Positions 47,567-62,564 of a DNA stretch of 64,000 bases are shown here, one piece after another. The stretch's first letter is position 1; every line of letters starts with the position of its first letter. The notes below the pieces were generated by a model. It was not told the DNA's origin. It did no database searches and was given only the letters and a program-made list of their open reading frames with translations. The position numbers and the translations under genes are program-made. The DNA is from a virus (taxonomy: Duplodnaviria; Caudoviricetes). Location of the stretch: positions 64,001 through 128,000 of the IMG/VR virus record IMGVR_UViG_3300046786_000293; one strand, 5' to 3'.

Positions 47567-47641
47567 TGGTGGATGTTAGTGGGATCGAACCACTGACCTA
47601 CACCGTGTCGAGGTGTTGCACTACCGCTGTGCTAAACATCC
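47567..47641 (-). tRNA. tRNA-Val(GAC), unusual C33
   Basis: Cloverleaf, loop UCGACAC, CCA. Confidence 0.85.
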
Positions 47642-47645
47642 AAAT

Positions 47646-47722
47646 TGGTCCGGCCGGAGGGATTCGAACCCCCATCGGACTCCTTAGAAGGGAGTTGCCT
47701 TAATCCATTAGACCACGGCCAG
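47646..47722 (-). tRNA. tRNA-Arg(UCU)
   Basis: Loop CUUCUAA, CCA. Confidence 0.92.
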
Positions 47723-48097
47723 TTATCTTGTTGCTCTTGCTCTTGCTTCAATCATTTCATCAATAAACCCCTTGTCGACTACATTGGTATAAGTGTCAAC
47801 ATGCCCGCTAGCATGATCTACTACTCGATTATCGGGTTCATGATATGTTCTAACTCTTTCTTGTCCTGCAAGATAACGTTCTTTGTCTTTGTGAAAATGT
47901 GCCTGCACTCTTGATAAACACGTTACATAGGCCATTTGCTTGTTATCTTCACGACTGCGACTAGATGTTCCATTTGCTGTGATACCCGTGGGCTCATGGA
48001 TACATCTGCAACAGTTTTGATGTTTATTACGGTGCTGACCTCCTTTACCGGTGCCAGAATACCATTCATATCTAAATTGTTCTTCCGTAATTTTCAT
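47723..48097 (-). CDS. Mini class-I release-factor/peptidyl-tRNA hydrolase domain protein (GGQ)
   Basis: GTGKGGQHRNK, HEPTG, RSREDNK, RTYHEPDNRVVDH; start refined to ATG 48097. Confidence 0.88.
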   Translation of the reverse strand: MKITEEQFRYEWYSGTGKGGQHRNKHQNCCRCIHEPTGITANGTSSRSREDNKQMAYVTCLSRVQAHFHKDKERYLAGQERVRTYHEPDNRVVDHASGHVDTYTNVVDKGFIDEMIEARARATR

Positions 48098-48108
48098 TTT
48101 AACATCCT

Positions 48109-48192
48109 TGGTGCGAGTGGAGGGATTTGAACCCTCAATCAATTAAGCGGCAGATTTTAAGTCTGCTGTGTATACCGTTCCACCACACTCGC
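48109..48192 (-). tRNA. tRNA-Leu(UAA)
   Basis: Loop CUUAAAA, long variable arm, CCA. Confidence 0.92.
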
Positions 48193-48197
48193 AAATT

Positions 48198-48272
48198 TGG
48201 TCCCGCCAGTAAGAATCGAACTTACATTTATCGCTTAGGAGGCAATCGTTCTATCCATTGAACTATAGCGAG
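48198..48272 (-). tRNA. tRNA-Arg(CCU)
   Basis: Loop CUCCUAA, CCA. Confidence 0.9.
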
Positions 48273-48565
48273 TTATCTTTCAAGACCCGTTGAACTCGTT
48301 TGACTGTATTTAAACATACTTGGTCAAACCCGTCACCGTCTTCTGTGTCAATTATAACACCTTCTAGTTCATAGAATTGATCTCTGTTTGCCGTTTTTAA
48401 CCGTTCAATTTCGTTAGCGGCTTCCTCGAGCAAGTCGGCAATCCGATCCGGAGCACCTTCCTGCACACTTTTACGAGTTGATATTTGGCGTCTAATCTCC
48501 GCCCGCTTACGCAAACGGAAGATTAGGCTTTGTTGTTTAACAGGCAAATCGCTTTCGTCTTTCAT
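48263..48565 (-). CDS. Hypothetical phage protein
   Basis: RLRKRAEIRRQI...DRIADLLEEAA; start refined to ATG 48565. Confidence 0.7.
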   Translation of the reverse strand: MKDESDLPVKQQSLIFRLRKRAEIRRQISTRKSVQEGAPDRIADLLEEAANEIERLKTANRDQFYELEGVIIDTEDGDGFDQVCLNTVKRVQRVLKDNSL

Positions 48566-49446
48566 GCTAATTGTTCCCTTACCCAAGCCAACCGAGCTTG
48601 CTCGTCCATTGCTGTGTATTCTACTATATTAGCACGAATAGCGTCAACCAAGGGATAGAATTCTTCGTCCAGATTTTGCTTGATGTCCTTGTTCAAGTCT
48701 ACTAACTTGTCTGTGCGCGGATTGCGAGCAACCCACTTTGAAGTCAAGTAGTAAGGCGACTTGATCTTAGCACTTACGCCATCCTTAGTATAGAATACAA
48801 ACCCTTCATGTCGAACCGACTTGACTACGTCTAGCATACGTCCCACAGACATTATGGAATGTTCCACAGGGCGAGTACCAAACTCGATTTCAAGCATACG
48901 CAGAATCTTTGAGTCGATCATTACCCGACTGTTCCAATCTTTCGAGCGATAACCTAAAAGATACATACCTTCCAATTCAGGAACAATATGTGGATCACGA
49001 ATATGAACGCACTCAAACATAAACGTAGTGTTATGCCATTGACGGCAAACATTACTGAAACGGGCAACGTCTATCAACTCACGTGCCATGTCAACATAGT
49101 CACCAGTGGTAGAGCCAGTTGTTGAAACAAGCAATTCGCCGTTATGCCAAGTCACAGCTACCATAAAGCCGTTTACCTTACGATAAACGTCAACTAGAGT
49201 ATCCAACGGCAACACAGGTGCTTCCTTTTCGATGCCGTAGTTATAAATTTTAGTAAAAGGACGGCTTACTACGTTGAAGTCTGCGTCAACAATAGTGCCA
49301 CGACATTCTGCAATATAGTCATTCCACAAGTTATCGTAGAACACTTTCTTTTTGTACTTTAGGACGTAAAGGCCTTCACCGGCCGGCTTCATAGAAACCA
49401 ACTTTGGGTTAGCCTTTACGTATCCTGCTAGTTCTTCCTTAAACAT
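48562..49446 (-). CDS. RNA ligase (T4 Rnl1-like)
   Basis: ECRG, RPFTKIYN, KVNG (motif I KxNG), FE, EGFV, KIKS; start refined to ATG 49446. Confidence 0.85.
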   Translation of the reverse strand: MFKEELAGYVKANPKLVSMKPAGEGLYVLKYKKKVFYDNLWNDYIAECRGTIVDADFNVVSRPFTKIYNYGIEKEAPVLPLDTLVDVYRKVNGFMVAVTWHNGELLVSTTGSTTGDYVDMARELIDVARFSNVCRQWHNTTFMFECVHIRDPHIVPELEGMYLLGYRSKDWNSRVMIDSKILRMLEIEFGTRPVEHSIMSVGRMLDVVKSVRHEGFVFYTKDGVSAKIKSPYYLTSKWVARNPRTDKLVDLNKDIKQNLDEEFYPLVDAIRANIVEYTAMDEQARLAWVREQLA

Positions 49447-49447
49447 T

Positions 49448-49645
49448 CTATACTCCGAAATTAAATTCACGGACCCACTCGAAACGAGTCGAAGCAGGCA
49501 CCCACTTGAAATGTTGCTTCTTACGCTCGGGCTGTTCCCAGTCCGAGCAAAGCATCACCCATCCGCGGTCAGGAGAAAACACCACAGCGTCGGCAACTCG
49601 AACAACTTCGAAAAGCCGCCCATCCATTTTTGCCACTATTACCAT
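49448..49645 (-). CDS. Small hypothetical protein
   Basis: 65 aa, RBS AGGAG. Confidence 0.6.
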   Translation of the reverse strand: MVIVAKMDGRLFEVVRVADAVVFSPDRGWVMLCSDWEQPERKKQHFKWVPASTRFEWVREFNFGV

Positions 49646-49716
49646 GCTTTGCTCCTTTCTCGTAATACAGTTATTATACTATATTTGGGAATTTCGAGCA
49701 ACCAAAAAATGTAGTA

Positions 49717-55894: not shown

Positions 55895-55986
55895 TGGTGG
55901 AAGCGGTGAGATTCGAACTCACGGTGCCATTTCTGACACGCTAGTTTTCAAGACTAGAGCAATAAGCCGGGCTCTGCCACACTTCC
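55895..55986 (-). tRNA. tRNA-Ser(UGA)
   Basis: Loop CUUGAAA, long variable arm, A73, CCA. Confidence 0.88.
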
Positions 55987-56005
55987 ATGAAAAACTAAAA
56001 AGGAT

Positions 56006-56081
<76 letters not shown>

Positions 56082-56086
56082 AAATT

Positions 56087-56161
56087 TGGTGCCGACTATC
56101 GGATTCGAACTGATGACCTATCGCTTACAAGGCGATTGCACTACCACTGTGCTAAGTCGGC
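56087..56161 (-). tRNA. tRNA-Thr(UGU)
   Basis: Loop CUUGUAA, CCA. Confidence 0.9.
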
Positions 56162-56184
56162 AAATTTGTTTAAATACTTATACC

Positions 56185-56358
56185 ATGGCTGACTCTAAAA
56201 ATAATTTTGTACTTTTATACGAGTTATACGCCAATCAAGCATATACAAGTCCAGCCAGTTATACTAACACTAAAGAGTTTATTGTAAACGAAACTTTTTC
56301 TAACGTCAAGCAAGAATTTGTTCCTTGTACAATACCTCAAATTTGGCGGAACGACTGA
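56185..56358 (+). CDS. Possible small antisense ORF
   Basis: ATG 56185 after TAAATA; 57 aa; 3' end overlaps tRNA-Ser(GCU). Confidence 0.35.
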   Translation: MADSKNNFVLLYELYANQAYTSPASYTNTKEFIVNETFSNVKQEFVPCTIPQIWRND

Positions 56359-56433
56359 GACTCGAACTCAGAAACCGGCTTTCACCGATCGACGGATTAG
56401 CAATCCGCTCCAATACCATTATGGGACCGTTCC
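56344..56433 (-). tRNA. tRNA-Ser(GCU)
   Basis: Loop UUGCUAA, long variable arm, CCA. Confidence 0.9.
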
Positions 56434-56456
56434 TTTAACTTATTTAACAATAAAAT

Positions 56457-56531
56457 TGGCGACCCGTAGGAGAATCGAACTCCTATATCCGATTAGACAG
56501 ACCGGTATAATAACCACTATATGAACGGGCC
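56457..56531 (-). tRNA. tRNA-Asp(GUC), canonical
   Basis: Loop CUGUCUA, G73, CCA. Confidence 0.9.
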
Positions 56532-56538
56532 AATAACT

Positions 56539-56623
56539 TGGTGGAGACGGTGTGAGTCGAACACACAGTGCCAGAGGCGGCGGATTTACAGTCCACTGGG
56601 GTTACCAATTTTCCTACATCTCC
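56539..56623 (-). tRNA. tRNA-Tyr(GUA)
   Basis: Loop CUGUAAA, variable arm, CCA. Confidence 0.9.
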
Positions 56624-56629
56624 AAAACT

Positions 56630-56704
56630 TGGAAGAGCTACGGGGAGTCGAACCCCGCTTCTCAGGATGAAAACCTGATGTCCTAACCGATAGACGATAG
56701 CTCC
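56630..56704 (-). tRNA. tRNA-Glu(UUC), second copy with U73
   Basis: Loop UUUUCAU, CCA. Confidence 0.85.
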
Positions 56705-56710
56705 AAAATC

Positions 56711-56845
56711 ATTATATGTAAACACATCAGCGGTCTACTGTACGCTGTGATTGAACACTAGGACTTAGTATAAGTCGTCCGCGACTCCGCATCTTTTTAA
56801 CACAAGTCCTGCGGTTGCTTGTGAGCCAATATGCTTACATATAAT
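56711..56845 (-). ncRNA. AU-stem-closed small RNA, family 2 copy 4
   Basis: AUUAUAUGUAAGCAUAU ... AUGUGUUUACAUAUAAU. Confidence 0.55.
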
Positions 56846-56849
56846 GACA

Positions 56850-56938
56850 CTATATGAAAACACACTAAAAGGGATCTATACCGCCATCTGACTTATTGCC
56901 TGTTCAGTATAAAAGGGATCTAGTGCGTTTACATATAG
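56850..56938 (-). ncRNA. AU-stem-closed small RNA, family 2 copy 5
   Basis: CUAUAUGUAAACGCACUAG ... UUAGUGUGUUUUCAUAUAG. Confidence 0.55.
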
Positions 56939-57019
56939 AGCCTGCTTCACAGCAGGATATATGTGAATTAAATTTTTAAAGAACTTGTTCGTCAGTTATT
57001 GCTAACTGTCTAAGTATCT

Positions 57020-57048
57020 ATTATAGCAAAAAACCGAATTATTGTCAA
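57020..57048 (-). promoter_or_regulatory. sigma70 consensus promoter inside tRNA array
   Basis: TTGACA-17 nt-TATAAT. Confidence 0.85.
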
Positions 57049-57093
57049 AGACCCTTTTTACCACAGGGTTTTGTAATACTTCAGTTTTAAGAT

Positions 57094-57171
57094 TGGAGCA
57101 TCGGGTAGGATTTGAACCTACGGGGTTACGGGTTTGCAATCCGTTGCATTGGACCTCTCTGCCACCGATGC
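57094..57171 (-). tRNA. tRNA-Cys(GCA)
   Basis: Loop UUGCAAA, U73, CCA. Confidence 0.9.
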
Positions 57172-57178
57172 ATTATAA

Positions 57179-57235
57179 AACAGGATACATTTTTTCTTTT
57201 ATACCAAAAAAGTTAAAAGTTGCTGTTAGTATCCT
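57179..57235 (-). ncRNA. CAGCAA-module RNA F
   Basis: AGGAUAC-UAA-CAGCAA ... GUAUCCU-GUU. Confidence 0.7.
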
Positions 57236-57241
57236 AAAACT

Positions 57242-57317
57242 TGGTGGACCAGACAGGACTCGAACCCGCCACCCCCACGGTGCAAACGTGGTGCTCTCCC
57301 AGATGAGCTACTGGCCC
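57242..57317 (-). tRNA. tRNA-Ala(UGC), second copy
   Basis: Loop UUUGCAC, G3-U70, CCA. Confidence 0.92.
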
Positions 57318-57319
57318 TT

Positions 57320-57472
57320 TTAACTTGGAACTGTATGCGGAATGTATGGAACATTGCGAGGACCACCGTAAAGTTGTTCAAATAGCTTTTTAGCTTCTTT
57401 GACGTCAGATGCGTATATACGCACCTTTCTATCACCTTCAGGAGTCCTAACAGTAGTTTCGTACATTGGCAT
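57320..57472 (-). CDS. Small hypothetical protein
   Basis: MPMYETTVRTPEG..., 50 aa, RBS AAGGA; start refined to ATG 57472. Confidence 0.7.
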   Translation of the reverse strand: MPMYETTVRTPEGDRKVRIYASDVKEAKKLFEQLYGGPRNVPYIPHTVPS

Positions 57473-57487
57473 GCCAATTTCCTTAAA

Positions 57488-57564
57488 TGGTCGGAGTGGC
57501 AAGATTCGAACTCGCGACATCTTGGTCCCAAACCAAGCGGTCTACCAGGCTGACCTACACTCCG
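57488..57564 (-). tRNA. tRNA-Pro(UGG), second copy
   Basis: Loop UUUGGGA, C1-G72, CCA. Confidence 0.9.
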
Positions 57565-57569
57565 TATCC

Positions 57570-57644
57570 TGGTGCATCGTGAGAGGGTTGAACTCCCGAC
57601 CTTGGCCTTGTAAGGGCCCTGCTCTACCACTGAGCTAACGATGC
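57570..57644 (-). tRNA. tRNA-Val(UAC)
   Basis: Loop CUUACAA, CCA. Confidence 0.9.
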
Positions 57645-57649
57645 AAAAT

Positions 57650-57725
57650 TGGTTGCAGAGGAGGGAATCGAACCCCCGACCTCAAGGTTATGAGCCTTGC
57701 CAGATACCGCTTCTAACACTCTGCT
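57650..57725 (-). tRNA. tRNA-CAU, probable initiator fMet
   Basis: Loop CUCAUAA, A1-A72 mismatch, CCA. Confidence 0.8.
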
Positions 57726-58001
57726 TCAATTTTAAAAGTATACAACCTTTCACAAACAGAGCCTGTCTTATCAGCAGGGTGCGTTATACACTTATAAAAT
57801 TGTTCAGCTACCTACACCACATAGGCCCTAAACTGAGCGGTTGCTCTGTCCACGTTACCGTCGTTTGGTCCGGCTTACGTCAACCTAGGATATTCTCAAG
57901 TCGCCGATATAAAGCCGGCCTTGAAGTAGATCCTACGCACTCTGCTCTTATGGTTTGGCAATTACCCACTTCTTTAACGTAGAAGTGTAGACGGGGTCTG
58001 T

Positions 58002-58076
58002 ATGGAGCGGCGTGCGAGAATCGAACTCGCGACTTTAGCTTGGAAGGCTAAGGTAATACCATTTTACGAACGCCGC
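58002..58076 (-). tRNA. tRNA-Gly(UCC)
   Basis: Loop CUUCCAA, U73, CCA. Confidence 0.92.
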
Positions 58077-58093
58077 ACAATTTTACTTATGCT

Positions 58094-58177
58094 TGGTGCC
58101 CCAGGGGAGACTCGAACTCCCACGCCTCTCGACACTGGCTTCTAAGACCAGCGTGTCTACCATTCCACCACCAGGGC
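58094..58177 (-). tRNA. tRNA-Leu(UAG)
   Basis: Loop CUUAGAA, variable arm, CCA. Confidence 0.92.
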
Positions 58178-58183
58178 AAAATT

Positions 58184-58260
58184 TGGCTCCCCGAGCTGGG
58201 CTCGAACCAGCGACACCTTGATTAACAGTCAAGTGCTTCTACCAACTGAGCTATCAGGGA
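58184..58260 (-). tRNA. tRNA-Asn(GUU), second copy
   Basis: Loop CUGUUAA, G73, CCA. Confidence 0.92.
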
Positions 58261-58281
58261 ATAAATTTTTAACTTGTATCT

Positions 58282-58310
58282 ATTATATAGTCTAATCTAA
58301 TTTGTGTCAA
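58282..58310 (-). promoter_or_regulatory. sigma70 consensus promoter at head of main tRNA run
   Basis: TTGACA-17 nt-TATAAT. Confidence 0.85.
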
Positions 58311-58314
58311 CAAC

Positions 58315-58530
58315 TTATTTGATTTTTTTCAAATAGTCTCTACCAATTAGACCAGCTTCAATTTCTTCTAAGGCTGCAACGATCGGTGTGCTAGTTGTAG
58401 TAACCTTAGGTACTGCACCTTTACGCAGTTCACGAACACGTTGAGCTCCCACCAGGATCAAATCAAATCTGTTACCAATATTAGCAACACATTTGTCTGT
58501 GTCATTCATTACACGATTTTCTTTTTTCAT
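58315..58530 (-). CDS. rpoZ: RNA polymerase omega subunit homolog
   Basis: IGNRFDLILVGAQRVREL..G..P, ALEEIEAG. Confidence 0.85.
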   Translation of the reverse strand: MKKENRVMNDTDKCVANIGNRFDLILVGAQRVRELRKGAVPKVTTTSTPIVAALEEIEAGLIGRDYLKKIK

Positions 58531-58547
58531 AACTGCCTTAAAATTGT

Positions 58548-58577
58548 ATTATACTACCTATTGGTGGTTAGTGTCAA
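58548..58577 (-). promoter_or_regulatory. sigma70-type promoter for rpoZ
   Basis: TTGACA-18 nt-TATAAT. Confidence 0.75.
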
Positions 58578-58623
58578 GTCTAACGCGGAGCCCGTCAGAA
58601 GGACCCGGCAATTTTCATCCAAA

Positions 58624-58699
58624 GGTATTCTAAAACACACTTGATCCGTACCCTCTATCTGTTAGGACTGCTCTCGGGATTAGTATGTTTTAGAATACC
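58624..58699 (-). ncRNA. AU-stem-closed small RNA, family 2 divergent copy 6
   Basis: GGUAUUCUAAAACAUAC ... GUGUGUUUUAGAAUACC. Confidence 0.45.
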
Positions 58700-58842
58700 C
58701 TGCGTTGCCGCAGGATATGATAGGGTTGTACCCTACCCAGTAATTTATACTAGTGCGTTCTCGCCACACGTTCATCCTACTGTCCGCCCATTTGATACAT
58801 TTAACGCTGTATTCCGGCTCGCGTTGCCTATTCACGTTTGAG

Positions 58843-59004
58843 TTATGCTAGAGTCTTTGTTGCTAACTTTCTAAGTTGATTAGACTGAACTTTAGCACGT
58901 TCGAACTTTTCTGCTAATTTCTTTCGAAAGTCCGCATCTGTCAAAGTATACTCTGTAGTCCACCTAACTTCTCTCATTTGTTTTGCAATGTTTACTTTCT
59001 TCAT
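58843..59004 (-). CDS. Small basic protein downstream of attenuator
   Basis: MKKVNIAKQMREVRWTTEY..., 53 aa, RBS AAGGA; start refined to ATG 59004. Confidence 0.7.
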   Translation of the reverse strand: MKKVNIAKQMREVRWTTEYTLTDADFRKKLAEKFERAKVQSNQLRKLATKTLA

Positions 59005-59017
59005 AATTCCTTTATAT

Positions 59018-59053
59018 AAAAACAAAACCCCAGGGTGTTTAGTCCTGGGGTCC
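59018..59053 (-). terminator. Conditional intrinsic terminator of attenuator
   Basis: ACCCCAGG-(9 nt)-CCUGGGGU followed by UUUGUUUUU. Confidence 0.88.
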
Positions 59054-59071
59054 TTTTGAAGTATTTTGAGA

Positions 59072-59230
59072 TTATACTCTGGGTATTTTCTCTGCTCCAA
59101 TGGACCCCGGGGCAATCCCCTCTGGTGTGCGATCATTACTTTGTAGACTAATCACAGACCAATAGGTGGGCATAAAGCCTCCCTGTTTGGCTATGCAATG
59201 TTGTGACGATAATGATCTAATGTTGTTCAT
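59072..59230 (-). CDS. Leader peptide (52 aa) containing all 20 amino acids (not in ORF track)
   Basis: MNNIRSLSSQHCIAKQGGFMPTYWSVISLQSNDRTPEGIAPGSIGAEKIPRV; stop lies inside the antiterminator hairpin. Confidence 0.75.
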   Translation of the reverse strand: MNNIRSLSSQHCIAKQGGFMPTYWSVISLQSNDRTPEGIAPGSIGAEKIPRV

Positions 59231-59240
59231 AACAGTTTCT

Positions 59241-59269
59241 ATTGTAATTTATTTATGCCTTGTTGTCAA
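59241..59269 (-). promoter_or_regulatory. sigma70 promoter of leader (ATAAATA embedded in spacer)
   Basis: TTGACA-17 nt-TACAAT, 10 nt before leader ATG. Confidence 0.85.
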
Positions 59270-59318
59270 CTACTTTTGGTAATCTTTAAAATATTTATAC
59301 TTTTGTTTTAAACTAAGT

Positions 59319-60854
59319 TCAGCTACGGATGTTATCTTTTAACATTTTTAGTAATGCAGTTTTATACTCGTAGATGAACCATGGTTTTATTATATGTTCT
59401 ATTTCATGAAAGTCAAATGTTGGTTGAGTTGATTTCATCAACTCGGATAAATCAATTCCATAAGTCGACATGGCAAATGCAGTATGTGCTGGTAATTTAA
59501 AATTAGTAGCAGATGTCCGACTAATTCTATTAAATTCGTCTGCAATTTCTATTGCCTTTGCACTGTCCATGAATTCATTTTTCCAATTAAGGTCTGCTTG
59601 ATTATCCGGGGTCCCAGTGTCTATGTACCCGTACTGTTTATAATTTTTGTCAAATTCGCTAGAAAAATTACTATCGTATATTTTTGTAATTCGTAGACCA
59701 TTGAAAGCCCAAGAATCTAAAGGAATTTGGCTAGATAATAATTGCTCAAAGGTTTCTTGAATGTGTGTAAGTGATTCTTTTGGTAGCCCGACAATAAAAC
59801 TACCATGCAATGAAACTGAATCTCCGTAACGATGTTTAATAGTTTGTATAGTTTCTATTTGTTTTTTTCTATCGTACCCCTTACCAACAATACGACCCGT
59901 TTCTAAATTTAATGTTTCTATACCAAAATAAAAACCCCTAACACCAATAGCATATAGTAGATCAATGGTTTCTGGACGAGTACACAGAAGATCCAATCTG
60001 ATGTATGCCCAAAATTTTGGTTGGAACGGTAAGCGGTTTATCGCGCTTAAAATTAAATTTAATTTATCCGGGTGATCATTGAAAGTATCATCAACTATCA
60101 AATAATTTGTTACTCCAAATTTATTATAATTATCTAAAAGTTCTGTGTAAATGTTTTCAGCTGATTTTATGTAATCTAAATTAGACTTACCATTCATTGG
60201 ATAACTACAAAATTTGCATCTAAAAATACACCCTCGACCAATTTCAAGAGGTAAAGTTTTATGATTAACTACGTCGGTTTTTTCCCACACCATATCTTCT
60301 TTACTAAACTCGTAACCGGGAACCAATGATCCATCTATTACAATTTTACCATGAATATTTTTTATACTGTTTGACAATGCAGTTCCGTTGATCAAATGAT
60401 CAACAATGTTTACTATTGCGGCTTCACTGAAGCCTAAGCAAACGTAGTTTACGTTTTTATTAGAAATATTCTTGTTGGAAAGTTTATTGCCGCCGGCAAC
60501 CACTTTAATATTTTTTCCAATTTCATTAATGTATTCAAATATTTCACGCTCAAATTTCTCGCCTTGAGGGAACATGCCCGAGTGGGAGATAGGCATGCAT
60601 TCTGTTATATCTTCTTTAGAAGTTGTTTCGTTACTTTTAAAGAATGTTCTACTAAATCCTATTAGAACAGTTTTATCTGAAATTGCTACAGATAATAATT
60701 CTTTTAATTCACTTATGGTATATTCCGACAAATGCCCTACAACTAAACAACTATATCCGTTTTTTCTTAGTGCATGAGCACATTTAAATGCACCGATGCT
60801 TAAACTACTTACAATCTTATCTGTTACATCAGTGAATAATATTACGTTGTACAT
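59319..60854 (-). CDS. B12-binding-domain radical SAM protein
   Basis: RGCIFRCKFC (CxxxCxxC), VDDTFND, FGIET, SFIVGLP. Confidence 0.9.
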   Translation of the reverse strand: MYNVILFTDVTDKIVSSLSIGAFKCAHALRKNGYSCLVVGHLSEYTISELKELLSVAISDKTVLIGFSRTFFKSNETTSKEDITECMPISHSGMFPQGEKFEREIFEYINEIGKNIKVVAGGNKLSNKNISNKNVNYVCLGFSEAAIVNIVDHLINGTALSNSIKNIHGKIVIDGSLVPGYEFSKEDMVWEKTDVVNHKTLPLEIGRGCIFRCKFCSYPMNGKSNLDYIKSAENIYTELLDNYNKFGVTNYLIVDDTFNDHPDKLNLILSAINRLPFQPKFWAYIRLDLLCTRPETIDLLYAIGVRGFYFGIETLNLETGRIVGKGYDRKKQIETIQTIKHRYGDSVSLHGSFIVGLPKESLTHIQETFEQLLSSQIPLDSWAFNGLRITKIYDSNFSSEFDKNYKQYGYIDTGTPDNQADLNWKNEFMDSAKAIEIADEFNRISRTSATNFKLPAHTAFAMSTYGIDLSELMKSTQPTFDFHEIEHIIKPWFIYEYKTALLKMLKDNIRS

Positions 60855-60870
60855 CTAAACATATTTAATT

Positions 60871-60955
60871 TGGTGCTCCGACCCGGAATCGAACCGGGAA
60901 GCCGTTAGGCGGCAGATTTTAAGTCTGCTATGTTTACCTATTTCATCATCGGAGC
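60871..60955 (-). tRNA. tRNA-Leu(UAA), second copy
   Basis: Loop CUUAAAA, variable arm, CCA. Confidence 0.92.
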
Positions 60956-60985
60956 ATTCGTTAAAGTTGTATTTTACTATATATC

Positions 60986-62038
60986 CTATTTGTTGTCAAC
61001 GGGTTCAAACAAGTGATTTATTTTATATTGTTGCTCATTAACAAAACTATAAAACCTGTCTCTATTGTACAACAAATCGGGTAGCATGTCACGATACATT
61101 TCTTCCAATTGTGTTCTTGGCAATTTATTAAGATAGTCGATTACCGAAACTATTTGATCACATATTTGATGATCTGATATATTTTCACAGTCTATGTGGG
61201 GCCAATAATTTTCAAAAGTCTTAAAACCCTGTTGTCTTAACCAAGAATAAATTTTCGTTTGACCGTTAATTAAAAACGGTCTTAGACCTAATATCGATTT
61301 CCATGTTTTTTCTGTTATAAATACACTTTTAAAACTTGGGAATTCTGTTTCACTGATCACCGTCAGGAAGTGCTTTTGCCAAATTTCTAAATTCCCCAAA
61401 CTGTGAATATCATTGGGGATTCCAAATTGCATACTCTTGTCACCTAACGAATCGTTAGGACTTTCTCCTAGATTGAACTGTAAAGGATTGTCATCTAATA
61501 AACTATAAACTTTATCGTTTTTACCTAGCGTAAGTATTCCACACTCACGTAAGCCTGCACTTACTAATTTTTGAGCTAACTCAACTCTGTGAACTCTTGG
61601 TTTTCTATTGTAATTTAAATACACATGGTCGGCTTTTTCTAATAGAATTTCTGAGTCTTCATATTTTTTAAAATACTTTGGCAAAAGTGTACTTATAAAA
61701 TTGAAAGAATACTGTCCTTCAAAATTTCCAAGATAATAATGATTTTTTGCGCCAGCTTTCAGAGATAGTTCATTTAATACCTGATTATCTAGATATGCAG
61801 GATCAACAGATGCTAACCAGAATATGTTATCAAACTTTTTAGAGTCAACAATTTTTAAAAATTTTTGATATTGCCCATTAGTAAATTGCGGGCCGAACCA
61901 TGTTGTGTTTATTAGTAAATTTTTTTCATCTGAAAAAGTTTTATTGATTTGTAATATTATATTTTCGATTAATTTATTTTCGTCCCGCCACCATATATGA
62001 TTACTCTGAAATGTAGTCCCCACAAATTCTATTGTCAT
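60986..62038 (-). CDS. Hypothetical protein (glycan-related phage family), paralog of 52178-53200
   Basis: YLNYNRKPR.HR, TVISET, FITEKTWK..LG.RPF, GFKTF, LLYN. Confidence 0.75.
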   Translation of the reverse strand: MTIEFVGTTFQSNHIWWRDENKLIENIILQINKTFSDEKNLLINTTWFGPQFTNGQYQKFLKIVDSKKFDNIFWLASVDPAYLDNQVLNELSLKAGAKNHYYLGNFEGQYSFNFISTLLPKYFKKYEDSEILLEKADHVYLNYNRKPRVHRVELAQKLVSAGLRECGILTLGKNDKVYSLLDDNPLQFNLGESPNDSLGDKSMQFGIPNDIHSLGNLEIWQKHFLTVISETEFPSFKSVFITEKTWKSILGLRPFLINGQTKIYSWLRQQGFKTFENYWPHIDCENISDHQICDQIVSVIDYLNKLPRTQLEEMYRDMLPDLLYNRDRFYSFVNEQQYKINHLFEPVDNK

Positions 62039-62039
62039 A

Positions 62040-62282
62040 TTAATAATTTCTTGTCAATGCCATATAGCTCATCCACTGCAAAAAAGCATTGTACACTGTT
62101 ACTGCTTCTTTGTCATCCTGCGGAACCTTTACGCCGCGAACCCAAAATCCATCGTTTGTGATCTTAAGCATTTCGGTTTCGCCTGTGGTCATTATAACAT
62201 GAGCGGTGGGCTCTGTGTCTGCTATAGTAAAAACCGGACGAGGAGTCGGCTTACCGGTCAATTCGTTCCAATCAATTTCCAT
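62040..62282 (-). CDS. Hypothetical protein
   Basis: 80 aa. Confidence 0.7.
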   Translation of the reverse strand: MEIDWNELTGKPTPRPVFTIADTEPTAHVIMTTGETEMLKITNDGFWVRGVKVPQDDKEAVTVYNAFLQWMSYMALTRNY

Positions 62283-62479
62283 AGAATGTCCACAGCTTCT
62301 TCGTTTAGAAAGAATTGTGCTTTAACCATTTCTTCATCAGGGTTTTTGCCGTCTTTCCAAACTGTAGTAAACTTCAACTCGTAGGTGTTACCTTGTGCAT
62401 TTTTGTTTGCTAAAGAGGCAATAGGTTGCATCTCTGCGTACAGTTGAAATCCTGCGTTGTCTTGAAGTAATCTTTTCAT
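62258..62479 (-). CDS. Hypothetical protein
   Basis: Start refined to ATG 62479 (MKRLLQDNAG) downstream of tRNA. Confidence 0.65.
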   Translation of the reverse strand: MKRLLQDNAGFQLYAEMQPIASLANKNAQGNTYELKFTTVWKDGKNPDEEMVKAQFFLNEEAVDILWKLIGTN

Positions 62480-62487
62480 AGTTAAAA

Positions 62488-62564
62488 TGGTGCGCCCGGA
62501 GGGACTTGAACCCGCGACCAATGGATTATGAGTCCACTGCTCTAACCAACTGAGCTACAGGCGC
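62488..62564 (-). tRNA. tRNA-CAU, probable Ile2 (lysidine type)
   Basis: Loop CUCAUAA; AGCUCAGUUGGUUAGAGCA...UGGUCGCGGGUUCAAGU resembles bacterial Ile2. Confidence 0.82.

Follow-up and report, generated by a model that had tools for sequence, protein, structure and literature searches.

The window analysed here is a stretch of 64,000 nucleotides from a freshwater phage genome of 338.5 kb, and the element we describe occupies positions 59269-59018 on its minus strand. The element comprises a promoter, a short leader ORF and two overlapping hairpins, and lies ahead of a gene for a 53-aa helical protein, a structured RNA, an RpoZ-like gene and the phage tRNA genes.

59241..59269, minus strand: sigma70-type promoter, TTGACA (59269-59264), 17-nt spacer, TACAAT (59246-59241), 11 of 12 matches
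59072..59230, minus strand: leader ORF, 52 codons plus UAA
59102..59108, minus strand: A arm, GGGGUCC, which forms the 5' side of the helix closing the antiterminator
59054..59101, minus strand: inner hairpin of the antiterminator, variable; the stop UAA (59074-59072) adjoins the apical loop
59047..59053, minus strand: A', GGACCCC, the antiterminator 3' strand, overlapping the terminator 5' strand
59018..59051, minus strand: intrinsic terminator, ACCCCAGG (59051-59044), 9-nt loop, CCUGGGGU (59034-59027)
59026-59018, minus strand: terminator U tract, UUUGUUUUU, 3' of the stem
58843..59004, minus strand: first gene past the switch, encoding the 53-aa protein, with the RBS AAAGGA at 59013-59008
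58600..58842, minus strand: structured RNA, conserved, about 240 nt, lying past the 53-aa gene and before the next promoter
58577-58548, 58310-58282, 57048-57020 and 55281-55253: perfect sigma70 promoters past the switch within the window

The anatomy of the element can be read directly from the locus. The initial annotation had described a sigma70 promoter followed by a near-leaderless 52-codon ORF, and both are present at the minus-strand positions it gave, with the leader ATG at 59230, 10 nt past the -10 hexamer and 3-4 nt downstream of the predicted start site. Its further claim that the first 37 codons include every amino acid is also correct: codons 1-37 (59230-59120) hold all 20, with one each of C, H, F, Y, W and D, and the set is completed by codon 37 itself (GAG, 59122-59120). 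The tail of the leader (codons 38-52) crosses the A arm and reaches the apex of the antiterminator, a hairpin of 62 nt that contains the stop codon near its apex. The terminator stem is 8 bp long and G+C-rich. The pentanucleotide ACCCC is common to A' and the terminator 5' strand, which confirms the proposed mutual exclusion of the two structures, and the antiterminator arms are those originally assigned. The two folds are nearly iso-energetic (-24.7 versus -23.5 kcal/mol), and the fold of the element at this locus has a z of -3.75.

Such an architecture is unlikely to be a chance occurrence. Windows of 37 residues containing all 20 amino acids make up 0.22% of those in long ORFs of the phage genome and 0.28% of random 37-mers. 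Among 882 ATG-initiated ORFs of 30-70 codons in the 338.5-kb genome, 17 contain all 20 residues, and the leader ORF is the only one of these with a perfect-stem terminator downstream. The terminator motif occurs once in the window, compared with 0.01 occurrences expected.

Coding and composition of the leader across homologues

A set of 126 distinct homologous elements was assembled from IMG/VR and from metagenome contigs, one such contig falling in a Polynucleobacter bin. For the majority, retrieval relied on the terminator sequence and was independent of the peptide, which removed the bias of a core-pattern search whose pattern had made a GFMPTYWS core look invariant; about 30 matches to that pattern were set aside as the C-terminus of an unrelated protein sharing GFMPTYWS. 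A promoter with at least 10 of 12 matches and its -10 hexamer 6-11 nt before the ATG was found in 44 of the 126 homologues. The isolated phages of INPHARED yielded only tRNA-Asn matches, and Rfam gave no match in 59018-59240 at E <= 1, T-box included.

The leader frame stays open across the homologues and its indels are in-frame, synonymous variants are present in the leader core, and single-nucleotide codon differences by position number 687/697/1847, a clear third-position excess. Because of the in-frame indels, the synonymous core variants and this excess, the leader ORF is judged to be coding, a property that is shown here by sequence comparison. The synonymous variants also show the invariant core (the GFMPTYWS codons) to be coding, against a reading of it as RNA only. 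A profile search of 5.8 billion proteins returned 10 leader matches, 9 of which contain all 20 residues; such matches are few because gene callers seldom call the leader ORF.

All 20 amino acids are present, within about 47 codons, in 106 of the 126 distinct elements (84%), as against 1.6%, 3.3% and 1.5% under three composition nulls and 17% under a null that keeps positional conservation. The initial annotation had proposed asking whether a complete set is kept despite divergence, and the family passes this test. Column shuffling gave a mean of 20.9 complete sequences out of 120 and a maximum of 33, compared with 101 observed, and among representatives below 50% identity 18 of 30 are complete versus a null mean of 3.7. 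Absence of a given residue is far rarer than a Poisson expectation would allow (4% versus 34% for Cys, 0.8% versus 30% for His). The residues that are retained do not stay in place: the sole Cys is hosted by 21 different alignment columns and the sole His by 12, and on a tree built from the downstream DNA the position state of Cys changes at least 62 times while its presence or absence changes only 4 times. The corresponding counts are 44 and 1 for His and 41 and 1 for Tyr. Completeness extends to codons, since the leaders cover 28.9 of 32 decoding classes, as compared with 26.8 (maximum 27.1) when synonymous codons are redrawn and 22.0 for windows of phage genes. The commonest leader residue is Ser (12%) and each rare amino acid has about one copy; the enrichment for one or a few amino acids that defines trp/his-type leaders is not met in these leaders. 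These data show that selection holds the composition of the leader complete, with rare residues relocating without being lost.

The set is not perfect in every member. Of the 126 elements, 20 are short of one or two amino acids, Cys, Phe and Asp being the most frequent omissions, and in only 79 of the 126 is the set complete within the codons that leave the A arm free; 17 of the other 47 lack Val alone, and the Val codon GUC sits in the A arm. CGR codons are often missing from the leaders, though the islands usually have tRNA-Arg(UCG), and the match between absent codon classes and absent island tRNAs is only partly consistent. Some positions are also over-conserved, including a W in 115 of 116 sequences as well as G, D-R, P, E and AKQ. 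The conservation of W24, G, D-R, P and E is unexplained by a pure composition sensor.

Conservation of the hairpins and of the region downstream

The alternative helix foreseen in the initial annotation is conserved in the homologues: A and A' are 98.9% paired in 118 sequences and covary, with the first pair being G-C in 68 and A-U in 42. Among the homologues the A arm is read in two different frames (64 versus 55) and is therefore conserved as RNA. The terminator is 100% paired in the 118 sequences, an invariance that partly reflects how the loci were retrieved. The nucleotide common to both helices covaries with both of its partners; at this shared C/U (59047) the terminator pair is C-G in 71, U-A in 25 and U-G in 22, and it is never unpaired. 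When distinct A..A' segments were folded, 107 of 112 formed one hairpin closed by A:A', with a mean of -23.6 kcal/mol. The stop codon lies at the apical loop or just 5' of it, and A' starts 21-34 nt past the stop codon. Of the sole-copy codons, 96.4% begin 7 nt or more before the A arm, as against 79.4% of all codons, and the set is usually completed by a codon lying 6-17 nt ahead of that arm.

No conserved anti-antiterminator or pause (1:2) hairpin could be established across the homologues. Pairing of the A arm with upstream RNA is inconsistent (mean probability 0.44), and a hairpin within the ORF core is 83% paired with weak covariation. A long-range outer helix between codons 5-8 and the S-N-D-R codons was rejected as not conserved (48% paired), and RNAalifold on full-length elements recovered the terminator alone.

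The element consistently stands ahead of tRNA islands. All 78 elements with at least 2 kb of downstream sequence have at least four same-strand tRNA genes within 4 kb, and 62 of them have at least ten; what had been noted for a single locus, that the element heads its tRNA island, thus applies to every element with enough flank. No tRNA genes are found upstream in 65 of 91 elements, and the island of the complete genome serves all 20 amino acids. In 104 of 125 elements the next 120 nt contain the start of an ORF that is 30 aa or longer. The family of the 53-aa protein carries the motif LT.EQ..KLI.DKFERA, to which 85 distinct sequences fit, and the predicted structure is a helix-turn-long-helix (pLDDT 93.6) with no match in Pfam, PHROG, Atlas or PDB folds. 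The structured RNA is found at the same place in 26 elements by nhmmer, has a fold z of -2.9 and no Rfam match, and probably belongs to the attenuator-controlled transcript.

The caveat in the initial annotation that further promoters would limit the reach of the switch holds, and those it listed are all present. Given these internal sigma70 promoters, the switch cannot be the sole control of the tRNA genes; its direct targets are the 53-aa gene and the structured RNA behind it alone, and for the array it can do no more than add to transcription. Freshwater metatranscriptome contigs cover 59024-59255 and 58711-59053, with none over the upstream gene and one extending upstream of the predicted start site; contigs of this kind cannot reveal RNA ends or ratios.

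Two attempts were made to find the element through synteny. The upstream radical-SAM gene led to 25 homologue loci (31-46% identity) without the element or downstream tRNAs, and the RpoZ-like gene led to 11 loci in tRNA islands, where the element was not found within reach. A second frame with all 20 amino acids in the islands (..DRVTAQFR..) was rejected as a leader for want of a conserved start codon; it overlies conserved RNA just upstream of the tRNAs.

Proposed mechanism, alternatives and known systems

Three structural features of attenuators in general are present, namely a coding leader, an intrinsic terminator before the downstream genes and a mutually exclusive antiterminator; a rise in read-through on ribosome stalling is inferred. 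We consider it probable that the element is a transcription attenuator of the ribosome-mediated leader-peptide type, heading the tRNA island, and that selection keeps its leader close to the smallest sample that covers all 20 amino acids and about 29 of the 32 decoding classes. In the mechanism we propose, RNA polymerase would start at the promoter while a ribosome loads on the almost leaderless AUG and trails it. If decoding is unhindered, the ribosome would unwind the 5' half of the long hairpin and be at the stop codon while the polymerase makes the terminator; with the A arm unable to pair with A', A' would pair with the downstream strand, form the terminator and end the transcript at 59026-59018. 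A ribosome waiting for a charged tRNA within the first ~37 codons would instead leave the A arm free, so that A:A' closes the hairpin, no terminator forms and transcription reads through to the 53-aa gene and the structured RNA, and on to the tRNA genes where no further signals intervene. Read-through is likewise predicted if there is no translation at all.

The dependence of the antiterminator on ribosome position is inferred, as are the direction of the switch, its kinetics and its physiological trigger (starvation or tRNA cleavage), and there is no functional evidence of stalling-dependent read-through. Whichever charged tRNA ran short, downstream transcription could probably be switched on, although no experiment bears on this. 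With one codon per amino acid, sensitivity to mild starvation is low. It is tempting to speculate, as a possibility that we rate somewhat below even, that the leader is a test pattern for the whole decoding apparatus that detects the loss of any tRNA species and has the tRNA and RNA-repair island transcribed on demand. Under such a reading the triggers may be host anticodon nucleases, other tRNA-targeting defences or late-infection exhaustion of host tRNAs.

The over-conserved positions raise the possibility that the switch senses a programmed nascent-peptide arrest, or translation impaired more generally by a compound that targets ribosomes or by a host defence, with W...D-R-T-P-E acting in the tunnel and the complete amino-acid set being secondary. 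The W is nearly invariant in position, the residues G, D, R, P and E that immediately precede the A arm are strongly conserved, the nucleotides AAUGAUCGYACACCAGAG are almost fixed, and uORFs such as toiL are known to sense several classes of ribosome inhibitor (PMC12121999). We nevertheless regard this as unlikely: the fixed spacing expected of an arrest motif is not met, with 11-15 residues between W and P even in close homologues, and in the wider family the motif is degenerate or missing while all 20 residues are kept. A stall at D-R-T-P-E would moreover cover the A arm and favour termination, and arrest leaves unexplained both the coverage of codon classes and the relocation with retention of Cys, His and Tyr.

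The conservation pattern might instead point to a trans-acting RNA binder (a protein, a small RNA or, as in T-boxes, an uncharged tRNA) that sets the fold, translation being incidental or only resetting the structure. The A arm, A', the terminator and its loop are indeed far more conserved than the peptide, and the conserved small helical protein of the next gene, whose role is unknown, could feed back. Against this, the inner hairpin is variable in sequence, the lack of an Rfam match at E <= 1 includes the T-box, and the invariance of the terminator is in part an artefact of locus retrieval; the fixed location of the stop codon in the apex, together with the siting of sole-copy codons before the A arm, suggests that the input is where the ribosome stands, and we find a trans-acting factor very improbable. 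We attach scarcely any credence to the remaining alternative, in which the ORF is a small protein with its own function, and the hairpin and terminator merely end the transcript without any switch. No arrangement is commoner in genomes than a small gene with a terminator behind it, and the leader is under protein-level purifying selection with several conserved positions. A functional small protein gives no reason, however, for a complete set of residues retained independently of position or for the extra diversity of synonymous codons. Two reading frames are used across the C-terminal quarter, which is under conservation as RNA alone; the nucleotide common to both helices covaries with each of two exclusive partners, the two folds are iso-energetic, and the leader matches no Pfam or PHROG family.

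To our knowledge, hardly anything is known of how phage tRNA genes are regulated. Their presence has been debated for decades, the main proposals being that they provide codon compensation, replace host tRNAs that have been degraded or help the phage to evade defences that cleave tRNAs (PMC10264068, PMC11555353, PMC12409363). If our attenuator model is true, the phage gauges decoding capacity and makes tRNAs available as they are needed, and the leader, whose one global property to be conserved is that every amino acid and nearly every decoding class occurs in it, would be the clearest natural example of a peptide selected for having a complete composition, not for its sequence. As the element is about 250 nt long, with a sigma70-type promoter and a canonical terminator, it is directly testable in E. 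coli or in purified transcription-translation, and if working as proposed it would provide a ready-made general reporter of translational stress.

Like the trpL, hisL, pheL, leuL and thrL leaders and the multivalent ilv leaders, the attenuator has a short leader that is translated and an intrinsic terminator overlapped by an antiterminator, with ribosome position as input. Those leaders contain runs of one to three regulatory amino acids and control biosynthetic enzymes, and their 1:2 pause/anti-antiterminator hairpin causes untranslated RNA to terminate. In contrast, the phage leader has about one codon per rare amino acid, and read-through is predicted without translation. T-box leaders resemble the phage element in sensing the charging status of tRNA and in the choice between terminator and antiterminator. 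Each of them directly recognises one particular uncharged tRNA by means of a specifier loop and a T-box bulge, without translation, whereas the phage element has no Rfam T-box match and its input appears to be the translating ribosome. We know of no report of compositional completeness in toiL. This uORF of E. coli topAI-yjhQ (PMC12121999) is similar in reporting many kinds of ribosome stalling but differs in that it senses antibiotics and, according to a review of Rho termination that cites it, acts on Rho-dependent termination and translation, not on an intrinsic terminator.

Among published systems, the whiB7 uORF attenuator of mycobacteria comes closest (PMC10274678). Both systems have a long and diverse uORF, a Rho-independent terminator and a competing antiterminator, and in whiB7 efficient translation leads to termination and stalling to read-through (PMC10274678). 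whiB7 is induced by starvation pathways for 18 of the 20 amino acids; removal of a single Trp codon from its uORF significantly reduced the response to Trp starvation, and removal of three His codons abolished the response to His starvation (PMC10274678). The M. smegmatis uORF contains all amino acids but Cys, yet the whiB7 uORF is Ala-enriched and several amino acids are missing in M. tuberculosis, so that the full set is not conserved (PMC10274678). Control of an actinobacterial WhiB7 regulator is not met in the phage element, which has tRNA-island genes downstream instead. The two work alike architecturally, and we claim no descent, as they share no sequence, host or regulated gene. The whiB7 uORF controls the transcription factor of a cellular stress regulon, whereas the system described here is viral and stands ahead of tRNA genes, and in over 100 of its members selection maintains completeness itself, down to the level of codon classes.

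Anatomy and relatives of the leader element

The source record, an IMG/VR virus of 338,510 bases with an estimated completeness of 97%, carries 40 tRNA genes that cover all 20 amino acids. In the window there are 39 tRNA genes, every one on the minus strand, within 47567-62564; in the genome outside the window ARAGORN calls one tRNA-Pyl, far from the main island and possibly a suppressor-type tRNA, and tRNA genes reach genome base 183679. A 115-nt match to the Rfam tRNA model (51503-51617, minus strand) represents a tRNA carrying a long insertion; on the same strand, 55400-55467 matches YrlA (Y RNA-like) below threshold (33.4 bits versus a gathering score of 69). The initial annotation had proposed a pan-amino-acid leader-peptide attenuator at the head of the island, and every feature it described (promoter, ORF, hairpin, terminator and the codons for all 20 amino acids) was found as stated. 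With A and A' denoting the 5' and 3' strands of the helix closing the antiterminator, the element comprises:

59269-59241, minus strand: sigma70-type promoter, TTGACA-17-TACAAT
59230-59072, minus strand: leader ORF, 52 codons
59108-59102, minus strand: A arm, GGGGUCC
Between A arm and A', minus strand: variable hairpin holding the UAA stop (59074-59072)
59053-59047, minus strand: A', GGACCCC
59051-59018, minus strand: terminator, ACCCCAGG (59051-59044) and CCUGGGGU (59034-59027) plus U tract (59026-59018)

The ATG starts ten bases past the -10 hexamer, all 20 amino acids fall within codons 1-37, and ACCCC is common to A' and the terminator. The predicted transcript fold beats 200 of 200 shuffles (z = -3.75), with the terminator in the minimum-energy structure and the long hairpin in the centroid; an Rfam search of the element matched no family. 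Only 0.22% of 37-residue windows from long ORFs of the same genome contain all 20 amino acids, and among its 882 short ATG-ORFs the leader is the sole one that does so and is then followed by a perfect-stem terminator. Inside the ORF, over the conserved peptide core, lies a possible hairpin (CCAA..AGG..GGC / GCC..CCU.UUGG; 59166-59197, minus strand), whose pairing reaches 83% across 49 sequences; its covariation is weak, and it could be a pause hairpin or mere coding constraint.

A peptide search of IMG/VR gave six loci, whose alignment showed a frame kept open despite in-frame indels and a near invariant terminator. A degenerate pattern of the peptide core then retrieved 34 viral and 75 metagenome loci, with synonymous variants within the core. 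As this retrieval fixes part of the peptide, IMG/VR was searched by the terminator sequence alone, which yielded at least 120 stretches; pooled with the earlier core-pattern loci bearing the same terminator, these made at least 160 loci with at least 122 distinct upstream ORFs. At least 126 distinct elements were analysed, and the family fractions refer to the matches listed. Synteny via the upstream radical-SAM gene or the RpoZ-like gene was fruitless for locating relatives, and none of the isolated phages in INPHARED carries the element. Contigs reach 341-354 kb and therefore represent jumbo phages, and the sequencing runs containing the stretch are freshwater, lake and river samples. The sole match in 185,579 species genomes (L257; contig JBBAKF010000113.1) is 6.2 kb long and phage-like in content (ClpP-like gene, GC 41.6%); it carries an all-20 leader and was binned with a Polynucleobacter sp. 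MAG, a weak hint at a Polynucleobacter host, or else a binning artefact. The leader-core octapeptide GFMPTYWS also occurs in the C-terminal stretch of an unrelated protein (loci L044, L049, L052, L058, L061, L063, L069, L072 and L077, and about 20 metagenome loci), in a different context without terminator or tRNAs; this likeness is probably coincidence. Upstream of the ATG, 82 of the 126 related elements (e.g., L047, L076 and L057) lack a sigma70-type promoter; in its place they carry a short hairpin and, after it, an A-rich AAAAGGAAA-like motif lying 12-15 nt ahead of the start codon. This arrangement could represent a promoter specific to the phage or a ribosome-binding site set at a distance.

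Composition and coding of the leader peptide

The prediction that an all-20 composition would be conserved despite divergence was borne out. Among the matches listed, the full set of 20 amino acids is present in 106 of 126 distinct elements, 19 are present in 18 elements and 18 in two, with ORFs averaging 47 codons. Random peptides of matched lengths are complete in 1.6% of cases when drawn from the composition of the window proteome and in 3.3% when drawn from that of the family itself, and 47-residue windows of real ORFs in 1.5%. Nine of ten relatives from a collection of 5.8 billion proteins are likewise complete. Rare residues are absent far less often than a Poisson expectation allows (Cys 4% versus 34%, His 0.8% versus 30%, Trp 1.6% versus 35%, Tyr 0.8% versus 28%). 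Ordinary positional conservation as the cause was ruled out by shuffling residues within alignment columns, which left a mean of 20.9 of 120 sequences complete (maximum 33) against 101 observed; among 30 representatives below 50% identity, 18 are complete versus a shuffle mean of 3.7 and a maximum of 9. Completeness exceeds this null because rare residues relocate yet are retained: the sole Cys occupies 21 alignment columns and the sole His 12, while the sole Tyr sits mostly in the core (x-Y-W) or just before D-R, in a complementary pattern. A tree inferred from the DNA that lies downstream of the sensed part requires at least 62 changes of position for Cys versus four of presence or absence, 44 versus one for His and 41 versus one for Tyr; tree error and recombination inflate the positional counts, but the contrast remains large. 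From these comparisons we infer that the composition of the leader is under selection. Another conserved frame, ..DRVTAQFR..KCITHPADKTGSVCE.., also contains all 20 amino acids. It immediately precedes tRNA genes, some 1.5-2 kb past the switch, in the islands of L040, L041, L046, L048, L051, L060 and others; since its start codon is not conserved, it is more likely a conserved RNA.

Between moderately diverged pairs, single-nucleotide codon differences fall 687/697/1847 on positions 1/2/3, and 1556 of 3231 are synonymous. The stop codon is UAA in 118 of 122 leaders. Judged by the substitution pattern, the ORF is a translated sequence. Beyond about codon 38 the A arm is read in two frames (64 versus 55 members), with its nucleotides nonetheless conserved, and thus the first ~37 codons evolve as peptide and the tail as incidentally translated RNA.

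When codon boxes are split by pyrimidine or purine third base, with AUA, AUG and UGG added, 32 decoding classes result, of which the leaders cover an average of 28.9. The same peptides with synonymous codons redrawn from phage usage reach 26.8 (maximum 27.1 in 400 draws), and 47-codon windows of long phage ORFs reach 22.0 (maximum 29 among 6078). AUA, AGR, CUR and GGR occur far oftener than expected, and the classes that many leaders lack are limited to CUY, CGR and GUY. The islands never contain tRNA-Leu(GAG) and rarely tRNA-Val(GAC), consistent with the absent classes, but usually contain tRNA-Arg(UCG), at odds with the missing CGR. On codon content, therefore, the leader samples nearer "all tRNA species" than "all amino acids", but it matches the island's own tRNAs only in part.

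The alternative helices and the proposed mechanism

The mutually exclusive helix that had been proposed is kept in homologues. A and A' are paired in 98.9% of cells across 118 distinct sequences, with the outermost pair being G-C in 68, A-U in 42, G-U in four and unpaired in four; in the terminator the same C/U nucleotide forms C-G in 71, U-A in 25 and U-G in 22. A single base thus covaries with two mutually exclusive partners in a three-way table, a finding difficult to account for if either helix were not in use. Because the search pattern specified the remainder of the terminator, the invariance of that remainder is not evidence; the A arm lay outside the pattern. The segments from A to A' form one hairpin closed by A:A' in 107 of 112 distinct cases (mean -23.6 kcal/mol), with the stop codon at, or just 5' of, the apical loop and A' starting 21-34 nt past it. 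Forced terminator and antiterminator folds differ by just 1.2 +/- 1.6 kcal/mol.

A ribosome with a hungry codon in its A site frees the RNA from about 7 nt past the first base of that codon, a figure derived from established work that locates the helicase of the ribosome near +11 relative to the P site. Sole-copy codons begin 7 nt or more ahead of the A arm in 96.4% of cases versus 79.4% of all codons, and on or after it in 3.4% versus 16.3%. The set-completing codon is usually 6-17 nt before the arm (14 nt in the window). Under this strict criterion the full set of 20 precedes the arm in 79 of 126 leaders; in 17 more, only Val is missing there, its codon GUC being part of the arm.

Ribosome-mediated attenuation is the most economical reading and, in our judgement, the probable mechanism. 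Unhindered translation would bring the ribosome as far as the stop codon in the apex of the hairpin, where it would separate A from A' and let the terminator form, whereas a stall at any earlier codon would free the A arm, so that the antiterminator forms and transcription goes on. We found no conserved structure that would terminate untranslated RNA, as in trp-type leaders, so loss of all translation should also give read-through. Attenuation leaves unexplained why W, G, D-R, P and E are so strongly conserved. Their conservation keeps alive a specific nascent-peptide arrest, which in turn does not explain why all 20 amino acids are retained independently of position, nor the coverage of codon classes. 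The same two observations are unaccounted for if the ORF encodes a functional micro-protein followed by a plain terminator, or if a trans-acting factor operates the switch.

Genes behind the switch and comparison with known systems

At least four same-strand tRNA genes lie within 4 kb in all 78 elements with at least 2 kb downstream (at least ten in 62), at a median of 441 nt from switch to first tRNA, and 65 of 91 elements have none within 4 kb upstream. Behind the switch the window contains:

58843-59004, minus strand: small-protein gene, motif LT.EQ..KLI.DKFERA with invariant K and R
58600-58842, minus strand: structured RNA of ~240 nt, fold z = -2.9
58315-58530, minus strand: RpoZ/Rpb6-like gene (RNA polymerase omega, PF01192), inside the tRNA island and served by a perfect sigma70 promoter of its own

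In 104 of 125 elements an ORF of 30 aa or longer begins no more than 120 nt past the terminator. Most such ORFs encode a conserved small protein of ~50-60 residues, whose gene is usually the first one after the switch; its motif is matched by 85 distinct sequences. Its AlphaFold model is a helix-turn-long-helix hairpin (pLDDT 93.6), without a match in Pfam, PHROG, Atlas or PDB. The structured RNA often follows this gene, recurs in the same position in 26 or more related elements, has a long stem GGGUAUUCUAAAACA.../...UGUUUUAGAAUACC as its 3' half and matched nothing in Rfam. RpoZ-like homologues of 46-61% identity (L027-L037) lie within tRNA islands of other phage contigs, three of them (L032-L034) adjoining a tmRNA gene. 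The initial annotation's caveat about further promoters holds: four perfect sigma70-type ones stand behind the switch, so direct control is limited to the small protein and the RNA, at most adding to transcription of the array.

Two contigs of a freshwater metatranscriptome cover the element. One, from a variant strain, spans 59024-59255, has one of its ends inside the U tract and extends upstream of the predicted transcription start; the other, an exact match, spans 58711-59053, crossing the terminator and covering the structured RNA to 58711. No contig of this metatranscriptome lies over the upstream gene (59303-59700) or over 58449-58692. The contigs fit a transcription unit from near the promoter with terminated and read-through products, although they cannot give ends, strand or amounts.

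Recent work describes phage tRNAs as escapes from tRNA-cleaving defences (PMC10264068, PMC11555353, PMC12409363); such defences are a natural but untested trigger of the switch. Literature searches turned up neither an all-20 leader nor attenuation acting ahead of tRNA genes in phages. Among published systems the mycobacterial whiB7 uORF comes closest: it is long and diverse, has a terminator and antiterminator, is induced through starvation pathways covering 18 of the 20 amino acids and in M. smegmatis contains all amino acids except Cys (PMC10274678). Removing its single Trp codon significantly reduced the response to Trp starvation, so one codon can suffice, and removing its three His codons abolished the response to His starvation (PMC10274678). 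Unlike the phage leader, the whiB7 uORF is Ala-rich, does not conserve completeness and controls a cellular regulator. By inference as to function, the phage element works like a whiB7-type or trp-type attenuator while being a member of neither family.
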